From Escherichia phage CJ20, in sequence record MT533174.1: 64,000 bases of DNA; one strand, 5' to 3'. The position numbers and the translations under genes were made by a program. Positions 4,300-51,065 of this stretch are shown in pieces (the first letter of the stretch is position 1; each line of letters begins with the position of its first letter). The notes below the pieces were generated by a model. It had not been told where the DNA came from, ran no database searches, and saw nothing but the letters and a program-made list of their open reading frames with translations.

Positions 4300-6606
<2,307 letters not shown>

Positions 6607-6610
<4 letters not shown>

Positions 6611-7482
6611 AATGATACCCTATTTTTTCTTGGCGCTGGAGGTGCTGGGTCAACCGGTACAGGAATATCCTGCGAGTATGTTTGAACGGATTCACCTTGC
6701 CAGTCTTCTTGGTCGACATCTCGCGGAACGGCTTCCGAGTCAACAGATTCGAAATTACCTTCCGGCGCAAGCTCTCTGGAATTTGCAAAGAAGTCAAGAT
6801 AGATAGTACGGATTTCTCCGGCCACTTCTTTAACCGGTGGATATAGCCAACCGTTGACTTCGAACATAATGGACCATTCAAGTCTACGACGGGTCATTGC
6901 ATCACCTTCAATTTGCTCATCCATAGCAATGGACTGAAGCACGATTCTTATATCACGTTCGAATGTAATTTCATTCGTGTAGAGTTCGGTGATAGTTGTA
7001 TTAAAATGTGGCTGGAAGTAAGGCATGATTTGTTCGATAATCTGGAACATATCATCTTGATGCCTTGTATATATTCCAAGCTCAAAAATCATTTTGACCG
7101 GCACCGGAGAATATTGAGATATCTGCTTGCGAGGGTCGTTATTAGCAAATCGCGCCTGTGTGTGATTCTGGAGAGCCGTTTTATATTGCCCGTTATACAT
7201 CAAGTCAACAAGATGTAAGTTCATACGGGGCAGTACGGTCTCGATTTTAGCCTTCTGAGCAGCACGTTCTTGTGGTGACATGTCAGGAGTCGGTGTATTC
7301 TGAATTGCGGTCCATTTTCCAAGCTGCATCATGAATTTTTCTTTTGATGCGTAGGAAATAGGGACCTTAATATATTTAAGTCCAGTGTCTTCTCTGGTTC
7401 TGGCCACTTGTACATGGGAAAATAAATCGCCCATTAAAACGATATAGCGACGCAGAGACGAATTATAAAAATGCCCAAACAA
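6607..7482 (-). CDS. 15: tail sheath stabiliser / tail terminator, T4 gp15-like
   Basis: 291-aa [24 protein letters not shown]... resembling the T4 gp15 N-terminus; the conserved first codon is TTG (plus strand CAA at 7480-7482) with GGAGG 8 nt upstream. Confidence 0.85.
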
Positions 7483-7525
7483 AGTAACCTCCGGGCGCCC
7501 AGTTCGGGCGCATTAATAAATGTAT

Positions 7526-8311
7526 TTATTCATCAAAGAAACTATCGTCAAAGCTATCCTGTTTTGCCTTAGGCGGTGACTCAAGCCCACGACCATTCTG
7601 CACAAAATATGGTTTAACATATTCAGCTGCTTCTGCGTTAATCTCATCAGATTCTGCATAAGGAATATCACTGATATCTGTAAGGCCATCGATATTGTGG
7701 ATTGGTTGCAAATCGAGCTCACTGAATTCTGGAATATTAATACCTTCATTTCGTTGCAATTCGGGTTTAAGCTCTTCTCCGGAGTAAATGTATTTGCTCG
7801 CGGTGATTTTACGGATGGCGTTTTGACCTACCTGATAGAACGGGTCATAAGGCTGTACCCAGGTTATTTCGAACAGACTGTTATCGAGAGGGAAATAAAT
7901 CAAATCCCCTGCAATAGGTTCGGTGCCGTTGCATTGATGTTTAAACAGATTAGGGTTAATCGACACTGTGATTTCATCATTCACAGTCATACCAAATTTA
8001 CTGAAGATGGAACCATCACCCTGATAAGCATCGAACGTATCCAGATAACCAGCAAATTTCCATGCTTTATCAAATTTACTCTGGAGGTCTTCACCGAATA
8101 ACAAATCTGGTTTAACGAATTGTCTTGGGATGTAATAGAGAGACATCCCGCGCATCTGAATACTTTCAGCAACAATAGCATCGGCTAAAGTCTGGGTATT
8201 TTCATGATGCATAAAGTTTACATAAGGGTTCAATATCTCTGTAGCATTGGTATTGTCATACCCGGTCCCGTCTTCGAGCCGAGCGAATAAGTTCGCGTCA
8301 TATGTAGCCAT
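7526..8311 (-). CDS. 14: neck protein, T4 gp14-like
   Basis: 261-aa [21 protein letters not shown]...; position and size match T4 gp14 (256 aa); start shares a base with the gene 13 stop (TAATG). Confidence 0.85.
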
Positions 8312-28370: not shown

Positions 28371-29043
28371 AATTAATTGCGATTGTGGGTAAAAAACGCA
28401 GTGGTAAAGATACGACTGCTGATTATGTTATTAGTCAAAACGGAACAAAGTGGCAGCTTGCAGGTCCGATTAAAGAAGCGCTTTATAAAGCGTGGATTCG
28501 TCAAGACCTGCCACACAATTTGACCCTGGAAAATTTTGATGGGCAAGGTTATGACCGTGAAAAAACCTTGATAATGAACAACACCGAAGCTTATATTCTT
28601 CTGGTTGATGCTCTTGAATGGTTAAAACAACAATATAATCTTGACCTTCCGAATCCAGATATGGTTCGTAAAATTATTGAATTTCACACACTAAATAATG
28701 TTGAGCCCTGGACGGTTAGACGTTTCATGCAGACCCTTGGAACTGACATCGTTTGTACAGAGTTCGACAGCATGTTTTGGATTAAAACTTTTGCATGCGA
28801 TTATCTTGACAACCTCTATTCTGGATATAAATATTACGTTGTCCCGGATGTTCGCCAAAAGAACGAACTTGATTCGCTTCGGGCGATGGGTGCTACAATA
28901 ATCTTTGTAGAACGCGATGAAGCAAATCATTCTACTGATACACACATTACGGAAGCTGGACTTCCACCACTAGCTAGTGACATTGTTATTAAAAACGATG
29001 GCACACTCGATGAACTTTTTGATAAAATTAATAAGGTAATATA

Positions 29044-29044: not shown

Positions 29045-29728
<684 letters not shown>

Positions 29729-29729
<1 letters not shown>

Positions 29730-29758
29730 TGTACAAATGAGTGTAGGTGCAGTATTAT
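29729..29758 (+). promoter_or_regulatory. T4-type early promoter with downstream stem-loop (PeSL-like cassette)
   Basis: -35 GTGTAC (29729-29734), 18-nt spacer, -10 TATTAT (29753-29758); inverted repeat GTAGG...CCTAC spans the -10 region. Confidence 0.55.
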
Positions 29759-29789
29759 GCTCCTACACCAACGAACAAACGGAGTTAAA

Positions 29790-30122
29790 ATGAACATAAA
29801 GACTTACAACGAGTTTTTAGCCGAATCCGCCATCAATGAGACCAAATCAATTGATGATAGTGAAGGCTCTCTGAAATTTGGTTTAACCAAAAATGCAGAT
29901 GGTGTTTTCTTTCAGATTGGTAATGAACGTTTTCAAACGTCCAAATATTCCAAAGCTGCAGTTGAAGCTGTCCTGAAATCTGGTGGCAAGTGGAAAGGCA
30001 AAGAAGGTACTAAAGAAATTGGCATCGCTGTTGACGGTGGTATGGCTTATTTTAAAATTGGCGATGAACAATTTATTATGTCTGCTCGCGGACGTAAAGA
30101 ACTGGCAAAACTTTATAAATAA
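29790..30122 (+). CDS. internal protein (ip)-like, with variant capsid-targeting N-terminus MNIKTYNEFLAE
   Basis: 110 codons from the ATG at 29790 with GGAG RBS; N-terminus is a variant of the T4 IP capsid-targeting sequence MKTYQEFIAE; lies at the T4 ipI position after 57B. Confidence 0.7.
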   Translation: MNIKTYNEFLAESAINETKSIDDSEGSLKFGLTKNADGVFFQIGNERFQTSKYSKAAVEAVLKSGGKWKGKEGTKEIGIAVDGGMAYFKIGDEQFIMSARGRKELAKLYK

Positions 30123-30130
30123 GGTTTCTT

Positions 30131-30403
30131 ATGAAAACTTTCAATGAATTTTTCAACGAGTCCCAACTGAATGAAGAAGTAAAAATTAGTAAAGCAGTCA
30201 AAGCTATGATTGACAATATCAATCACCTGTACAGCATTGACTTGACTGACCATATAACAATTGGTAACAAACGCAACTTTTTCGCGTTTGACATCTCTGA
30301 ACTTGACCAGAACCAAATTAATAACATTGAGCGTTTTGCCAATGACAAGGGTCTCCGCCATGAGACAGCTGGTTATAAAAAATATGCAATTTATCTAAAA
30401 TAG
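30131..30403 (+). CDS. internal protein (ip)-like, N-terminus MKTFNEFFNE
   Basis: 90-aa ORF with a variant CTS N-terminus; second gene of a tandem ip cluster. Confidence 0.7.
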   Translation: MKTFNEFFNESQLNEEVKISKAVKAMIDNINHLYSIDLTDHITIGNKRNFFAFDISELDQNQINNIERFANDKGLRHETAGYKKYAIYLK

Positions 30404-30411
30404 GATTTCAA

Positions 30412-30711
30412 ATGCAAACTTTTCATGAATTTTTGGTAGAAAACAATTACCTGGCGGAAGCAAAAACCTGGCCTCTGGGTCTTCAGAAGAAAAACACCTA
30501 TAAATGGGTTGACTTCAAAGGTAAAGGCGACGCTGAAGACTTTGACCAGCTGCGTAAAAATGGTTATACCTTCCTTGACTCTAACTATAACAAAATTACC
30601 TCTTTTAGTCAGAAGTCAAGCATTGCCTTCATTGAAACTGGTAAGAACTCTCCTAAAGATATTTCTGACGACTTCGCCGCTTATGGTGTAATTCGTGGTT
30701 CAAAAATGTAA
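30412..30711 (+). CDS. internal protein (ip)-like, N-terminus MQTFHEFLVE; paralog of the gene at 44475
   Basis: 99-aa ORF; variant CTS; shares GDAEDF...NGY(T/S)F...IAF(I/V)...G with the ip-like gene at 44475-44738. Confidence 0.7.
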   Translation: MQTFHEFLVENNYLAEAKTWPLGLQKKNTYKWVDFKGKGDAEDFDQLRKNGYTFLDSNYNKITSFSQKSSIAFIETGKNSPKDISDDFAAYGVIRGSKM

Positions 30712-30740
30712 TGTACATGATGGGATAGTTGCAGTATAAT
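30711..30740 (+). promoter_or_regulatory. T4-type early promoter with stem-loop (PeSL-like cassette)
   Basis: -35 ATGTAC (30711-30716), 18-nt spacer, -10 TATAAT (30735-30740) centred in the inverted repeat GGGATAgttgcagTATAATTATCCC. Confidence 0.6.
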
Positions 30741-30766
30741 TATCCCATCAACTACTGGAGCTACTA

Positions 30767-31045
30767 ATGAAAACTTATCAAGAATTTATTAACGAATCAA
30801 TTAGTCACCCGGATATGCTGGAAGACCTGAAAGGACATCTGATGGTTAAGGCCAAACCGGTTGATGGTGGCGCATTTGAGTTGTTTCTTGTTAAAGGCGA
30901 AAACGGTCCTGATAACAAGAAAGTTTCAGCAATGATGTTGACTAAAGGTTACAAAGTCAGTTCTTCCTGGAATGCTCCATTCACTTACGCGGTAAGCCCT
31001 CGTGAACTGAAAAAAGTTAAAGCTGGACAATATACAAAAATTTAG
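30767..31045 (+). CDS. internal protein (ip)-like, N-terminus MKTYQEFINE
   Basis: 92-aa ORF beginning with the canonical CTS MKTYQEFI.E; GGAG RBS. Confidence 0.75.
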   Translation: MKTYQEFINESISHPDMLEDLKGHLMVKAKPVDGGAFELFLVKGENGPDNKKVSAMMLTKGYKVSSSWNAPFTYAVSPRELKKVKAGQYTKI

Positions 31046-31074
31046 TGTACGTGATGGGATAGTTGTAGTATGAT
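31045..31074 (+). promoter_or_regulatory. T4-type early promoter with stem-loop (PeSL-like cassette)
   Basis: -35 GTGTAC (31045-31050), 18-nt spacer, -10 TATGAT (31069-31074); same GGGATAGTTG...ATCTCATCAACTACTGAGGAG leader as the copy at 30711. Confidence 0.55.
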
Positions 31075-31102
31075 TATCTCATCAACTACTGAGGAGAATA
31101 AA

Positions 31103-31288
31103 ATGAAACGTTGCGAATTAATTAGAAATGTTACTGCCCTTGTTGCTGTTACCACTTTTGGTTTTAGCATGTTTGCTGGCTTTATGTTGAATATGCTTTC
31201 AACTTCTGAGAATATAATCTCTTTAGTAGTTGCATTTTTAATTGGTTCAATCTCTTTCGTTATGGATAAAATCTCTAAAGGTGAGTAA
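31103..31288 (+). CDS. small hydrophobic (membrane) protein, 61 aa
   Basis: ATG at 31103 after GAGGAG; MKRCELIRNVTALVAVTTFGFSMFAGFMLNML... carries a predicted transmembrane segment. Confidence 0.55.
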   Translation: MKRCELIRNVTALVAVTTFGFSMFAGFMLNMLSTSENIISLVVAFLIGSISFVMDKISKGE

Positions 31289-43319: not shown

Positions 43320-43622
43320 ATGAAAACGTATAAAGAATTTATCACCGAAGCGCGCGTAAGTGCAGGTAAATTAGAAGCCGCTGTAAATAAAAAGGCCCAT
43401 TCATTTCATGATTTACCAGATAAAGACCGTAAGAAACTTGTAAGCCTTTATATTGACAAAGAGCGTATTCTAGCTCTCCCTGGCGCTAACGAAGGTAAAC
43501 AGGCCAAGCCTTTGAATTCTGTCGAAAAGAAAATTGATAACTTTGCTTCTAAGTTCGGCATGTCTATGGATGACCTTCAGCAAGCGGCTATCGAAGCAGC
43601 TAAAGCAATTAAAGGTAAATAA
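43320..43622 (+). CDS. internal protein (ip)-like, N-terminus [10 protein letters not shown] (T4 ipIII/ipII position)
   Basis: 100-aa ORF beginning with the capsid-targeting sequence; lies between e and denV, where T4 carries ipIII and ipII. Confidence 0.75.
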
Positions 43623-43624
43623 CA

Positions 43625-43653
43625 GTTTACTTCCACGATACGTGTGATATAAT
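43625..43653 (+). promoter_or_regulatory. T4-type early promoter with stem-loop (PeSL-like cassette)
   Basis: -35 GTTTAC (43625-43630), 17-nt spacer, -10 TATAAT (43648-43653), followed by the inverted repeat GTTCTCCTacaaacatAGGAGAAC, which contains the RBS. Confidence 0.6.
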
Positions 43654-43681
43654 GTTCTCCTACAAACATAGGAGAACAAAC

Positions 43682-44098
43682 ATGACTCGCATTAATTTAA
43701 CCCTGGTATCTGAACTCGCTGACCAACATCTTATGGCTGAATATCGTGAACTTCCTCGCGTGTTTGGTGCTGTTCGTAAGCATGTGCAAAATGGTAAAAA
43801 GGTGTCTGACTTTAAAATCCCATCATCTTTTCTTTTAGGGACTGGTCATGTCACCTTCTTTTATGATAAGCTTTTGTTCCTTAAAAACCGGCATCAAGAA
43901 CTTATTGCGGAATGTTTAAAGCGAGGGTTTAACATAAAAGATATTTCTACCCAAGATTTAAATGATATTCCTGATGAATGGAAGAATGATTATCAACCAT
44001 CAATCTGGTCAATTGAAATCAGTCAAGCCAGACTGAATGAGAAAATTTCTCAAAAGCCTACCTGGTACAAATACTATGGGAAAGCTGTGTACGCTTAA
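43682..44098 (+). CDS. denV: endonuclease V (pyrimidine-dimer DNA glycosylase/AP lyase), T4 denV-like
   Basis: 138 codons from the ATG at 43682; [34 protein letters not shown]... is nearly identical to T4 DenV as I recall it; the ORF-track N-terminal extension is rejected. Confidence 0.93.
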
Positions 44099-44146
44099 CT
44101 AAAAAGGTTGTATAATGATTTTATCAACCAAACAATGGAATATAAA

Positions 44147-44461
44147 ATGAAAACTTATCAAGAATTTATTACTGAATCTACCCAAAAACGTGTTGAAGGC
44201 GGTTATGTCTGGATTGAACAATTAACCCCACCAAGTGAAACGAGCACGGGTTCGTGGAAAATTACTGTTGATGGCCCTGGTGGAAAACGTAAGACTATTA
44301 AAGAAATTAAAGGCTATTATGATGAAGCCAAATCATGGGCTGGTAGTCATGTAATGCAGATTAAAATTGCAAACCCGGATAACGTTCATGCGGCAAAAGC
44401 ATTCCGTCGCATTGGTAATAAACTTTATGATGCGTTTTTGCGTGATTTCCCTAAAGAGTAA
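44147..44461 (+). CDS. internal protein (ip)-like, N-terminus MKTYQEFITE
   Basis: 104 codons from the ATG at 44147; canonical CTS N-terminus. Confidence 0.75.
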   Translation: MKTYQEFITESTQKRVEGGYVWIEQLTPPSETSTGSWKITVDGPGGKRKTIKEIKGYYDEAKSWAGSHVMQIKIANPDNVHAAKAFRRIGNKLYDAFLRDFPKE

Positions 44462-44474
44462 TTAAAGAGACATT

Positions 44475-44738
44475 ATGAAAACTTATCAAGAATTTATTAC
44501 TGAATCTGCTAAAGCTCCTACCGGTGCTTTTAAAGTCCGCGCCTTCGCTGGTGATGCTGAAGACTTTGGCACCATGAAGCGCAATGGTTATTCTTTCTTT
44601 GGTGGCGATGGTAAAGAAATTGTTACCTATGCAAAACGCCGCGAAATCGCATTCGTGGTTGCTGGTAAGAAAGTTGATGTTGACGATATTGAATGGGATT
44701 TTGATACCTTTGGTATTGTTTCTGGCGGTAAAGCATAA
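44475..44738 (+). CDS. internal protein (ip)-like, N-terminus MKTYQEFITE; paralog of the gene at 30412
   Basis: 87-aa ORF; CTS N-terminus; GDAEDF...NGYSF...IAFV...G shared with the ip-like gene at 30412. Confidence 0.75.
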   Translation: MKTYQEFITESAKAPTGAFKVRAFAGDAEDFGTMKRNGYSFFGGDGKEIVTYAKRREIAFVVAGKKVDVDDIEWDFDTFGIVSGGKA

Positions 44739-44740
44739 CT

Positions 44741-44768
44741 GTTTACTTTATGATGGGATAATTATACA
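44741..44768 (+). promoter_or_regulatory. T4-type early promoter with stem-loop (PeSL-like cassette)
   Basis: -35 GTTTAC (44741-44746), -10 TATACA (44763-44768), inverted repeat GGGATAattatacacTATCCC. Confidence 0.5.
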
Positions 44769-44794
44769 CTATCCCATCAACTTGGAGCGAATAA

Positions 44795-45094
44795 ATGAAA
44801 ACTTATCAAGAATTTATTACTGAAGCCAAAGCTCCTAAAGCATTTCAAATTGGGGTTCAGGGTAATTTAGACCAACAATATGTTGATGCTATTGTAGCAA
44901 GCCTCGGCAAGCAGGGTGTACAAGTGGATTTGGTTGATTTTACTAAAGGTAATACTTTTAATATTGTTACATCTAAAGGTTCTTTAGCTAAAGTTAAAAA
45001 GGCCTTTGGTGTAGCACAAGCATACGAAATCGACCATTCTGAATTAGAAAATAAAGGTCGCCAGAACACAATTAAAGGCTCTGGTTCTTTTTAA
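44795..45094 (+). CDS. internal protein (ip)-like, N-terminus MKTYQEFITE
   Basis: 99-aa ORF with the canonical CTS. Confidence 0.75.
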   Translation: MKTYQEFITEAKAPKAFQIGVQGNLDQQYVDAIVASLGKQGVQVDLVDFTKGNTFNIVTSKGSLAKVKKAFGVAQAYEIDHSELENKGRQNTIKGSGSF

Positions 45095-46885: not shown

Positions 46886-46886
<1 letters not shown>

Positions 46887-46915
46887 TGTACAAGCAGGTT
46901 GAAATGAGTTATGAT
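46886..46915 (+). promoter_or_regulatory. T4-type early promoter (PeSL-like cassette)
   Basis: -35 GTGTAC (46886-46891), 18-nt spacer, -10 TATGAT (46910-46915), then ...ATCCCATCAAACAAAAGGAGATAATCATG. Confidence 0.55.
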
Positions 46916-46942
46916 TATCCCATCAAACAAAAGGAGATAATC

Positions 46943-50998: not shown

Positions 50999-51007
50999 CA
51001 TTTAGGG

Positions 51008-51037
51008 GTTTACATCCTCATCAAAAGGGTGTACTAT
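51008..51037 (+). promoter_or_regulatory. T4-type early promoter (PeSL-like cassette)
   Basis: -35 GTTTAC (51008-51013), 18-nt spacer, -10 TACTAT (51032-37), then ...TATCCCATCAACTACTGAGGAGAACACAATG. Confidence 0.5.
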
Positions 51038-51065
51038 TATCCCATCAACTACTGAGGAGAACACA

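Follow-up and report, generated by a model that had tools for sequence, protein, structure and literature searches.

What do four small genes lying in tandem at a single locus contribute to Escherichia phage CJ20? The question arises from a 64,000-nucleotide stretch of sequence record MT533174.1 (the window, meaning throughout the whole stretch), in which positions 29790-31045, here called cluster A, hold four mutually non-overlapping open reading frames (ORFs) on the plus strand: A1 (29790-30122, 110 amino acids (aa), N-terminus MNIKTYNEFLAE), A2 (30131-30403, 90 aa, MKTFNEFFNE), A3 (30412-30711, 99 aa, MQTFHEFLVE) and A4 (30767-31045, 92 aa, MKTYQEFINE). We propose, with a probability of about 0.78, that A1-A4 are four T-even internal-protein (Ip) cassettes in the first Ip hotspot, each delivering an anti-defence cargo by means of a capsid-targeting sequence (CTS). 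The tag, the cleavage motifs, the synteny, the cassette repeats, the polymorphism, the purifying selection and the family assignments are observed directly, and by analogy with T4 the proteins would be packaged, cleaved, injected and active against host defence.

The first line of evidence is the tag itself. The six-frame translation of the window holds eight matches to the pattern [KQ]T[YF]xEFxxE, against none across 200 codon shuffles, and all eight are at starts of plus-strand ORFs, namely A1-A4 and the ORFs at 43320, 44147, 44475 and 44795. This bears out the first-pass annotation of the sequence, which had pointed to four adjacent genes with the N-termini quoted above. A tag of the MKT[YF]xEF type stands at residue 1 in A2, A3 and A4 and follows a two-residue extension in A1. 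All four tags keep Y or F at position 4, F at position 7 and E at position 10, and position 8 is L or I in A1, A3 and A4 and F in A2. Mutagenesis of the IPIII tag assigned targeting mainly to residues 4 and 7 and processing to residues 8 and 10, with Asp10 blocking processing (PMC9026906). The earlier description of the four N-termini as variants of the T4 capsid-targeting sequence is sound, with the correction that MKTYQEFIAE is the tag of T4 IPII and IPIII, whereas IPI starts MKTFKEF. Because T4 IPI carries F4, the F4 of A2 and A3 is already used by a T4 Ip that is described in the literature as packaged.

How would the cargo be released from such a tag? The L/I-x-E motif that closes the tag is LAE-12 in A1, LVE-10 in A3 and INE-10 in A4; in A2 the corresponding FNE-10 is non-canonical and the canonical motif is LNE-15. 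The claim that the tag ends at a site for the gp21 protease thus stands at the level of motifs, with that exception at residue 10 of A2. A second candidate cleavage site lies 5-9 residues further on (A1 INE-17, A2 LNE-15, A3 LAE-16, A4 MLE-19), an arrangement that recalls the 19-residue propeptide of IPI. T4 IPI starts MKTFKEFTST, is cut at ITE-19 and reads MKTFKEFTSTTTPVSTITE/ATL (the slash marks the cut, here and below), and the structure of IPI* (PDB 2JUB) comprises residues 20-95. The 96%-identical phage vB_EcoM_VR7 (VR7) encodes 67, 68, 21, 22, 23, 24 and inh, which are genes located outside the window, and keeps the T4 cleavage contexts in gp24 (LRE-10, MAKINELLRE/S), gp23 (LTE/AEIGGDHGYD) and gp21 (LIE-10), so that L/I-x-E specificity can be assumed. 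VR7 also has two tandem paralogues of gene 24 (vertex protein), each with L/I-x-E at residue 10 (LRE and IHE; positions 5503-8067 of the VR7 segment examined).

The second line of evidence is location. Cluster A is preceded by gene 1 (dNMP kinase), 57A and 57B and followed by a trna.4 homologue, and the T4T record has the order 3-1-57A-57B-ipI-trna.4. The synteny from 1 through 57A, 57B and the Ip genes to trna.4 is exact, and cluster A therefore occupies precisely the T4 ipI slot, as the first-pass annotation had placed it, next to 57B. The left edge of this variable slot is 57B, the anti-CBASS gene Acb1 (29274-29729, plus strand; Pfam PF23474, E 1.5e-59; synteny with T4 57B), and the right edge is the trna.4 homologue, a small membrane protein gene (31104-31288, plus strand) identified by synteny and by annotation in VR7, P896, T4 and RB32. 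Of the two Ip loci, the slot from 57B to trna.4 and the region from e to denV, cluster A lies in the first, in synteny with T4, RB32, VR7, STML-198 and MP1. A gene for enzymatic counter-defence, that of the nuclease Acb1, thus directly adjoins a hotspot for injected proteins.

A third line of evidence concerns the genes as such. A Shine-Dalgarno-like sequence is present at all four starts (GGAG in A1 and A4, AGGA in A3, AAGG in A2), and the differences between the window and VR7 are mostly synonymous (synonymous to non-synonymous 9:1 in A1, 3:1 in A2 and 21:6 in A3), which indicates that A1-A3 are under purifying selection. A Pfam scan of all eight tagged proteins of the window returned no significant family. 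All four proteins of cluster A match PHROG families (A1 phrog_3966, A2 phrog_7673, A3 phrog_2667, A4 phrog_15565), with A2 and A3 labelled as internal head protein and A1 and A4 as unknown function. The cargo domains of A1-A4 are mutually unrelated by BLAST, the exception to diversity being the similarity of A3 to a paralogue at 44475-44738 (38% identity, E 6e-15). The alignment of these cargo domains with T4 IPI, IPII and IPIII that had been suggested as a check was run by BLAST and gave no homology (best E 0.13), and PDB sequence searches with A1-A4 and with the IPII orthologue described below yielded no match below E 0.2. A conserved delivery tag with diverse cargo behind it, as the first-pass annotation had it, is thus what the comparison returns, and it fits the published picture of the T-even Ips (PMC3012670, PMC9026906, PMC12373910). 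That annotation had also listed similarity confined to the first 10 residues as a ground for rejection; in an Ip family this is the expected state and no counter-sign.

The tag of A1, MNIKTYNEFLAE/S, is the canonical tag after a two-residue extension, MN, with I replacing the ancestral M. Homologues in other genera start with ATG at the position of codon 3 of A1, which reads ATA, and the A1 gene now begins two codons upstream (MN-I-KTY; window 29790-29801). Within the A1 family, which amounts to 11 clusters in 5.8 billion proteins, the MN-I extension is found only in Gapriverviruses, the members from other genera beginning MKTY, and the shift of the start codon looks as if it were fixed across the whole Gaprivervirus genus. 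The tag residues K, T, Y, F and E are invariant in this family, as against a mean column identity of 47% over the whole alignment. In VR7, P896 and VR26 the annotated start of A1 is the ATG 33 nt further upstream (29757), which gives a protein of 121 aa, MLLHQRTNGVKMNIKTY in the window, in which the tag is hidden. ATG 29790 is the better start, because ATG 29757 lacks a ribosome-binding site and coincides in part with the -10 hexamer of a promoter-like element; ATG 29790 follows GGAG at a distance of 5 nt. The short start is already annotated in EAWsc9 and DK-13, and the VR7 counterpart is ORF156c, a hypothetical protein. EAWsc9 labels A1 'profilin' and A3 'homing endonuclease', and both labels look spurious. 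The A1 cargo is basic, with an isoelectric point (pI) of 9.3, and its predicted fold is Whirly/PUR-like, the model containing two repeats of four strands and a helix, that is, a (beta4-alpha) x2 topology. This model resembles the Whirly, PUR-alpha and MRP1-MRP2 fold, which is typical of single-stranded nucleic-acid binders, and on the grounds of fold and pI A1 could bind single-stranded DNA or RNA.

A2 is Ip9 (phrog_7673, E 1.7e-56), with full-length homology to the Ip9 proteins of RB32 (80% identity) and RB15 (79%), and it is annotated in VR7 as ip9, 'similar to RB32 Ip9'. The family is present in 193 phage records. Its tag in the window, MKTFNEFFNE/S, has F at position 8 where the family alignment has I in all other Ip9 proteins; LNE-15 follows, the cargo extends from about residue 18 and the pI is near neutral at 6.3. 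The Ip9 tags form a series from MKTYQEFISE (RB32) through MKTFNEFISE (AV116) and MKTFNEFFNE (window) to MKTFNELFNE (VR7 and P896). The Ip9 cargo is also found without the tag, once as a 73-aa ORF in Kagunavirus BCH953P1, a siphovirus (2507-2728; 45% identity, phrog_7673 positions 20-90, E 6e-22), and once as the C-terminal 60 residues of a 755-aa protein in Kuttervirus aagejoakim of the Ackermannviridae (473-2740; E 2.4e-8). In these two cases we have direct evidence of an independent module onto which a tag was grafted. The 755-aa Kuttervirus protein, of unknown function, adjoins putative structural genes.

A3 carries the tag MQTFHEFLVE/N, has its second site at LAE-16 and belongs to phrog_2667 (E 2e-21), a family shared with its window paralogues at 44475 and 44795; its VR7 counterpart is ORF154c, an internal head protein. 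Homologues occur in Salmonella phage STML-198 (75%; gp199, directly after 57B) and in Morganella phage MP1 (41%; gp258), and the tags of the family run from MKTYQEFINE (STML-198) and MKTFQEFINE (MP1) to MQTFHEFLVE (window) and MQTLHEFLVE (VR7). As judged from these alignments, the A2 and A3 tags are derived within Gaprivervirus. A4, whose VR7 counterpart is the hypothetical ORF153c, has the tag MKTYQEFINE/S, a second candidate site at MLE-19 and a basic cargo (pI 9.6). The 17 phage records that contain it are 98-100% identical and come without exception from Escherichia or Shigella phages, and those with taxonomy examined are Gapriverviruses. It forms one cluster in 5.8 billion proteins, and a full HMMER scan of 1.84 billion representatives with the A4 cargo returned no credible relative. 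Three long repetitive proteins that matched the cargo were rejected, the best of them (P0031) having scored through a short repeated motif and the other two through length and many short matched stretches. On sequence grounds A4 is an ORFan restricted to Gaprivervirus-like phages; its single-sequence AlphaFold model (pLDDT 47.6) is unusable for fold search.

How are such genes gained and exchanged? Three elements, one before A1, one between A3 and A4 and one after A4, share [AG]TGTAC[AG], a 17-nt spacer and TAT[TAG]AT overlapping a stem. Element 1 (29729-29775, plus strand) came from a promoter scan and has a sigma-70-type promoter (TGTACA, 17 nt, TATTAT) overlapping a stem-loop (hairpin -16.5 kcal/mol, z -2.4). 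Element 2 (30701-30757, plus strand) combines TGTACA, 17 nt and TATAAT with a 14-bp stem (-19.5 kcal/mol, z -3.4) and forms the left direct repeat of the A4 cassette, and element 3 (31035-31091, plus strand; -19.1 kcal/mol, z -3.8) forms the right one. These two 57-nt direct repeats are 89% identical, where none is expected by chance. VR7 has an extra ip6 cassette inserted at the site of element 3, with copies of this repeat at its borders; an early-promoter/stem-loop element of this kind also flanks T4 ipI, and the RB32 record notes a 43-bp direct repeat around Ip9-Ip7. The likeness is to the early-promoter/stem-loop (PeSL) elements of T4-type phages, in which a sigma-70-like promoter and a stem-loop are repeated at variable-gene borders in hyperplastic regions (PMC2839356, PMC4122927). 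They differ in that the window has the -35 hexamer TGTACA and not TTTACW or TTGACA, and in that its stem-loop overlaps the spacer and the -10 hexamer, whereas the known PeSL stem-loop precedes the promoter. An early promoter and a stem-loop repeated at cassette borders are thus present in the sequence, and promoter activity and recombination are predicted. Further PeSL-like elements lie in the window at about 44087-44116, about 44742-44790, 46886-46930 and about 51003-51060; the window's elements border variable small genes and end ...TATCCCATCAACTACTG(A)GGAG ahead of the next start codon.

Element 1 is a likely early promoter for A1, A2 and A3, which are separated by gaps of 8 nt each and probably form one transcription unit, A4 having an element of its own. 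The last codons and stop of A1 (LYK-stop; 30114-30121, plus strand) spell out an exact match to the T4 late-promoter consensus, TATAAATA. This match is one of only four on the plus strand of the window, it is kept in DK-13, and the only such consensus sequences nearby are those at 28826 and 30114. The copy at 30114 is a possible late promoter for downstream ip genes, but it is unlikely to serve A2 because it lies only 9 nt before the A2 start. We infer a late supply of protein during prohead assembly.

The other tagged genes form a second Ip locus, cluster B (43320-45094, plus strand), in which all four begin MKTY[QK]EFITE. The gene at 43320-43622 (plus strand) shares 95.6% identity with T4 IPII (94.2% in tblastn across 86 aa), is inserted between e and denV and is the only T4 orthologue among the tagged genes of the window. 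A 100% identical copy is present in Klebsiella phage HMGUkp2; VR7 is without it. Its assignment as an IPI orthologue was considered and rejected, since tblastn and the T4T record show it to be IPII and the real IPI begins MKTFKEF. The remaining three, on the same strand, are an Ip10-like gene (44147-44461) in the same PHROG as A1, phrog_3966, the A3 paralogue (44475-44738, phrog_2667) and an Ip7-like gene (44795-45094, phrog_2667), and they correspond to VR7 ip10, ORF127c and ip7, respectively.

The window belongs to Gaprivervirus (Tevenvirinae), its identity being 98.5% with Escherichia phage P896 and 96% with VR7. Within this genus five different gene sets occupy the slot between 57B and trna.4: A1-Ip9-A3-A4 in the window and P896, the same with Ip6 added in VR7, A1-Ip9-Ip5-Ip6 in VR26, A1-Ip9-A3-Ip5-X in EAWsc9 and A1-Ip9-Ip5-X-Y in DK-13 (X and Y standing for further genes). 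This variation matches the PeSL model of modular shuffling (PMC2839356, PMC4122927). The 'expanded repertoire' of the first-pass annotation is accordingly nothing peculiar to this phage, RB32 having Ip5-Ip9-Ip7 in the slot and sibling phages other combinations.

The model that we favor follows T4. Each gene encodes a CTS of 10-12 residues fused to a small cargo domain, about 75-100 residues long and unrelated from gene to gene; the tag would bind the gp22/gp67/gp68 scaffolding core during prohead assembly, gp21 would cut after the Glu of L/I-x-E to free the cargo inside the head, and the cargo would be ejected with the DNA and so act ahead of any phage gene expression. Its most likely role would be to neutralise host defences that attack the incoming DNA, which in T4 are specific type IV restriction enzymes of the GmrSD family. 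The PeSL-like border repeats and the shared 5' tag-coding DNA would permit gain, loss and swapping of cassettes, and recombination at these homologies would explain the differing gene sets of sibling phages.

A fundamental question is then which host enzyme the cargo would meet. T4 Ip1, Ip2 and Ip3 each inhibit a distinct GmrSD type IV enzyme, and the two Ip loci have been called a counter-defence hotspot by Silas et al. 2025 (PMC12373910). Gapriverviruses are without genes for hydroxymethylcytosine (hmC) synthase and glucosyltransferase, and an unidentified non-canonical base is suspected (PMC8056088, PMC12115623). In the VR7 record (NC_014792, 20000-50000) gene 42 (dCMP hydroxymethylase), a-gt and b-gt are missing from the positions that they have in T4, yet denB, alc, dCTPase and denA are kept, which is the reason for suspecting such a base. 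A Pfam scan of ten neighbouring ORFs for DNA-modification genes returned only domains of unknown function and NudE. One can tentatively combine these points with the A1 and A2 results, in which case all eight tagged proteins, the genus-specific ORFan A4 among them, would be injected effectors against defences other than glucosyl-hmC-specific GmrSD, A1 would bind single-stranded nucleic acid at the entering DNA, and the Ip9 cargo would be a general anti-defence module that the T-evens have made into a pre-loaded weapon; this combined picture is possible but doubtful.

Several observations weigh against packaged anti-defence cassettes. The cluster contains a single late-promoter consensus, and the promoters immediately ahead of its genes resemble early sigma-70 promoters. 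A2 has F at processing position 8, unlike every other Ip9 examined, and the A2 of sibling phages has L at targeting position 7; the A3 tag carries Q2 and H5, and its VR7 counterpart has L at position 4. This drift in A2 and A3 may reflect relaxed selection on the tag, and A1 carries its two extra N-terminal residues. Ip4-10, Ip9 included, gave no reproducible inhibition of the GmrSD variants tested (PMC12373910), and glucosyl-hmC-specific enzymes may not apply as the Ip target because Gapriverviruses are without the hmC and glucosylation genes. No Gaprivervirus virion proteome was found in the literature, and the packaging and cleavage of A1-A4 are what we infer. An alternative hypothesis built on the tag drift is that A4 and A1 are packaged while A2 and A3 are losing delivery in this genus and serve mainly as early-expressed cytoplasmic proteins, synthesised from the genome once it has entered. 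The derived substitutions do fall at experimentally important positions (in Ip9 the window has F for I8, and VR7 and P896 have L for F7; in A3 K2 to Q and Y4 to F, followed by a change to L in VR7), the single amino-acid difference between the A2 proteins of the window and VR7 lies in the tag, the promoters directly upstream are of the early type, and the Ip9 cargo occurs tag-less in other phages. However, F4 is used by T4 IPI, while E10 is retained, as are F7 (in the window) and a canonical L-x-E site further on, and the first 10 residues still match the tag far above chance. Moreover, T4 ipI is likewise preceded by an early-type promoter, and for this reason such a promoter is no argument against packaging. 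We regard partial decay of the tags as unlikely, and the doubt about processing and packaging voiced in the first-pass annotation as reasonable for the drifted tags of A2 and A3 and weak for A1 and A4.

A different role would follow from the older view of the Ips, in which packaged basic proteins associate with the DNA for charge neutralisation or DNA organisation and have no specific host target. Mature A1, A3 and A4 are indeed basic (pI 8.8-9.6), the fold predicted for A1 is one typical of proteins that bind single-stranded nucleic acid, DNA phosphates are contacted by lysines in the T4 internal proteins (PMC3012670), and the lack of GmrSD inhibition by Ip4-10 would agree with such a role. 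Structural ballast would nevertheless have no need for unrelated folds, rapid cassette turnover or strain-level polymorphism, A2 is near neutral, and all three T4 Ips proved to have specific enzyme targets, so that we consider this role quite improbable. That the four genes are chance ORFs or pseudogenes with an incidental N-terminal resemblance is suggested only by their small size and lack of Pfam domains; it is refuted by the absence of the motif from the shuffles and by the mostly synonymous substitutions, and the genes are conserved across genera and all match PHROG families, which leaves this explanation a negligible probability.

Under the Ip-cassette reading, injected proteins act before phage gene expression and would decide whether an infection survives its first seconds, and with every new cargo comes a candidate inhibitor of some unknown bacterial defence. 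The interest of the locus rests mainly on the target of eight putatively injected proteins in a phage without hmC genes, a setting where glucosyl-hmC-specific restriction enzymes may not be the target. This setting is one of the new points of the present analysis, the others being two previously unlabelled Ip members (A1 and A4), a corrected start codon and a fold-level lead for A1, and the Ip9 cargo as a free-standing module in unrelated phages. In practical terms, since Ip content is a determinant of host range, it deserves to be recorded in the selection of T4-like phages for therapy.

How, then, does cluster A compare with the systems already known? The ipI locus has reportedly been recognized as polymorphic since the work of Repoila et al. 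in 1994. T4 IPI/IPI* (ipI; PDB 2JUB), the injected inhibitor of GmrSD from E. coli CT596, shares with A1-A4 the slot, a similar size (95 aa), the MKT[FY]xEF tag, the gp21 I/L-x-E site and the flanking early-promoter/stem-loop element, although no gene of cluster A is an ipI homologue. T4 IPII and IPIII, the inhibitors of GmrSD-ECOR21 and GmrSD-ECOR17, have a tag to which that of A4 is 9/10 identical and of which A1 and A3 keep Y/F4, F7, L8 and E10, but they lie at another locus and have unrelated cargo. A parallel in arrangement is the Ip5-Ip9-Ip7 cluster of RB32, RB15 and K3, which occupies the same slot with tandem tagged genes and cassettes bounded by direct repeats, and of which A2 is the Ip9 orthologue (80%). 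It differs in its cassette set, A1, A3 and A4 being absent from RB32, and in the Ip9 tag, which has F8 in the Gaprivervirus window. The locus, the design of tag plus variable cargo and the repeat-bounded shuffling of cassettes have thus been described since 1994, and the present finding is the recognition of a known system.

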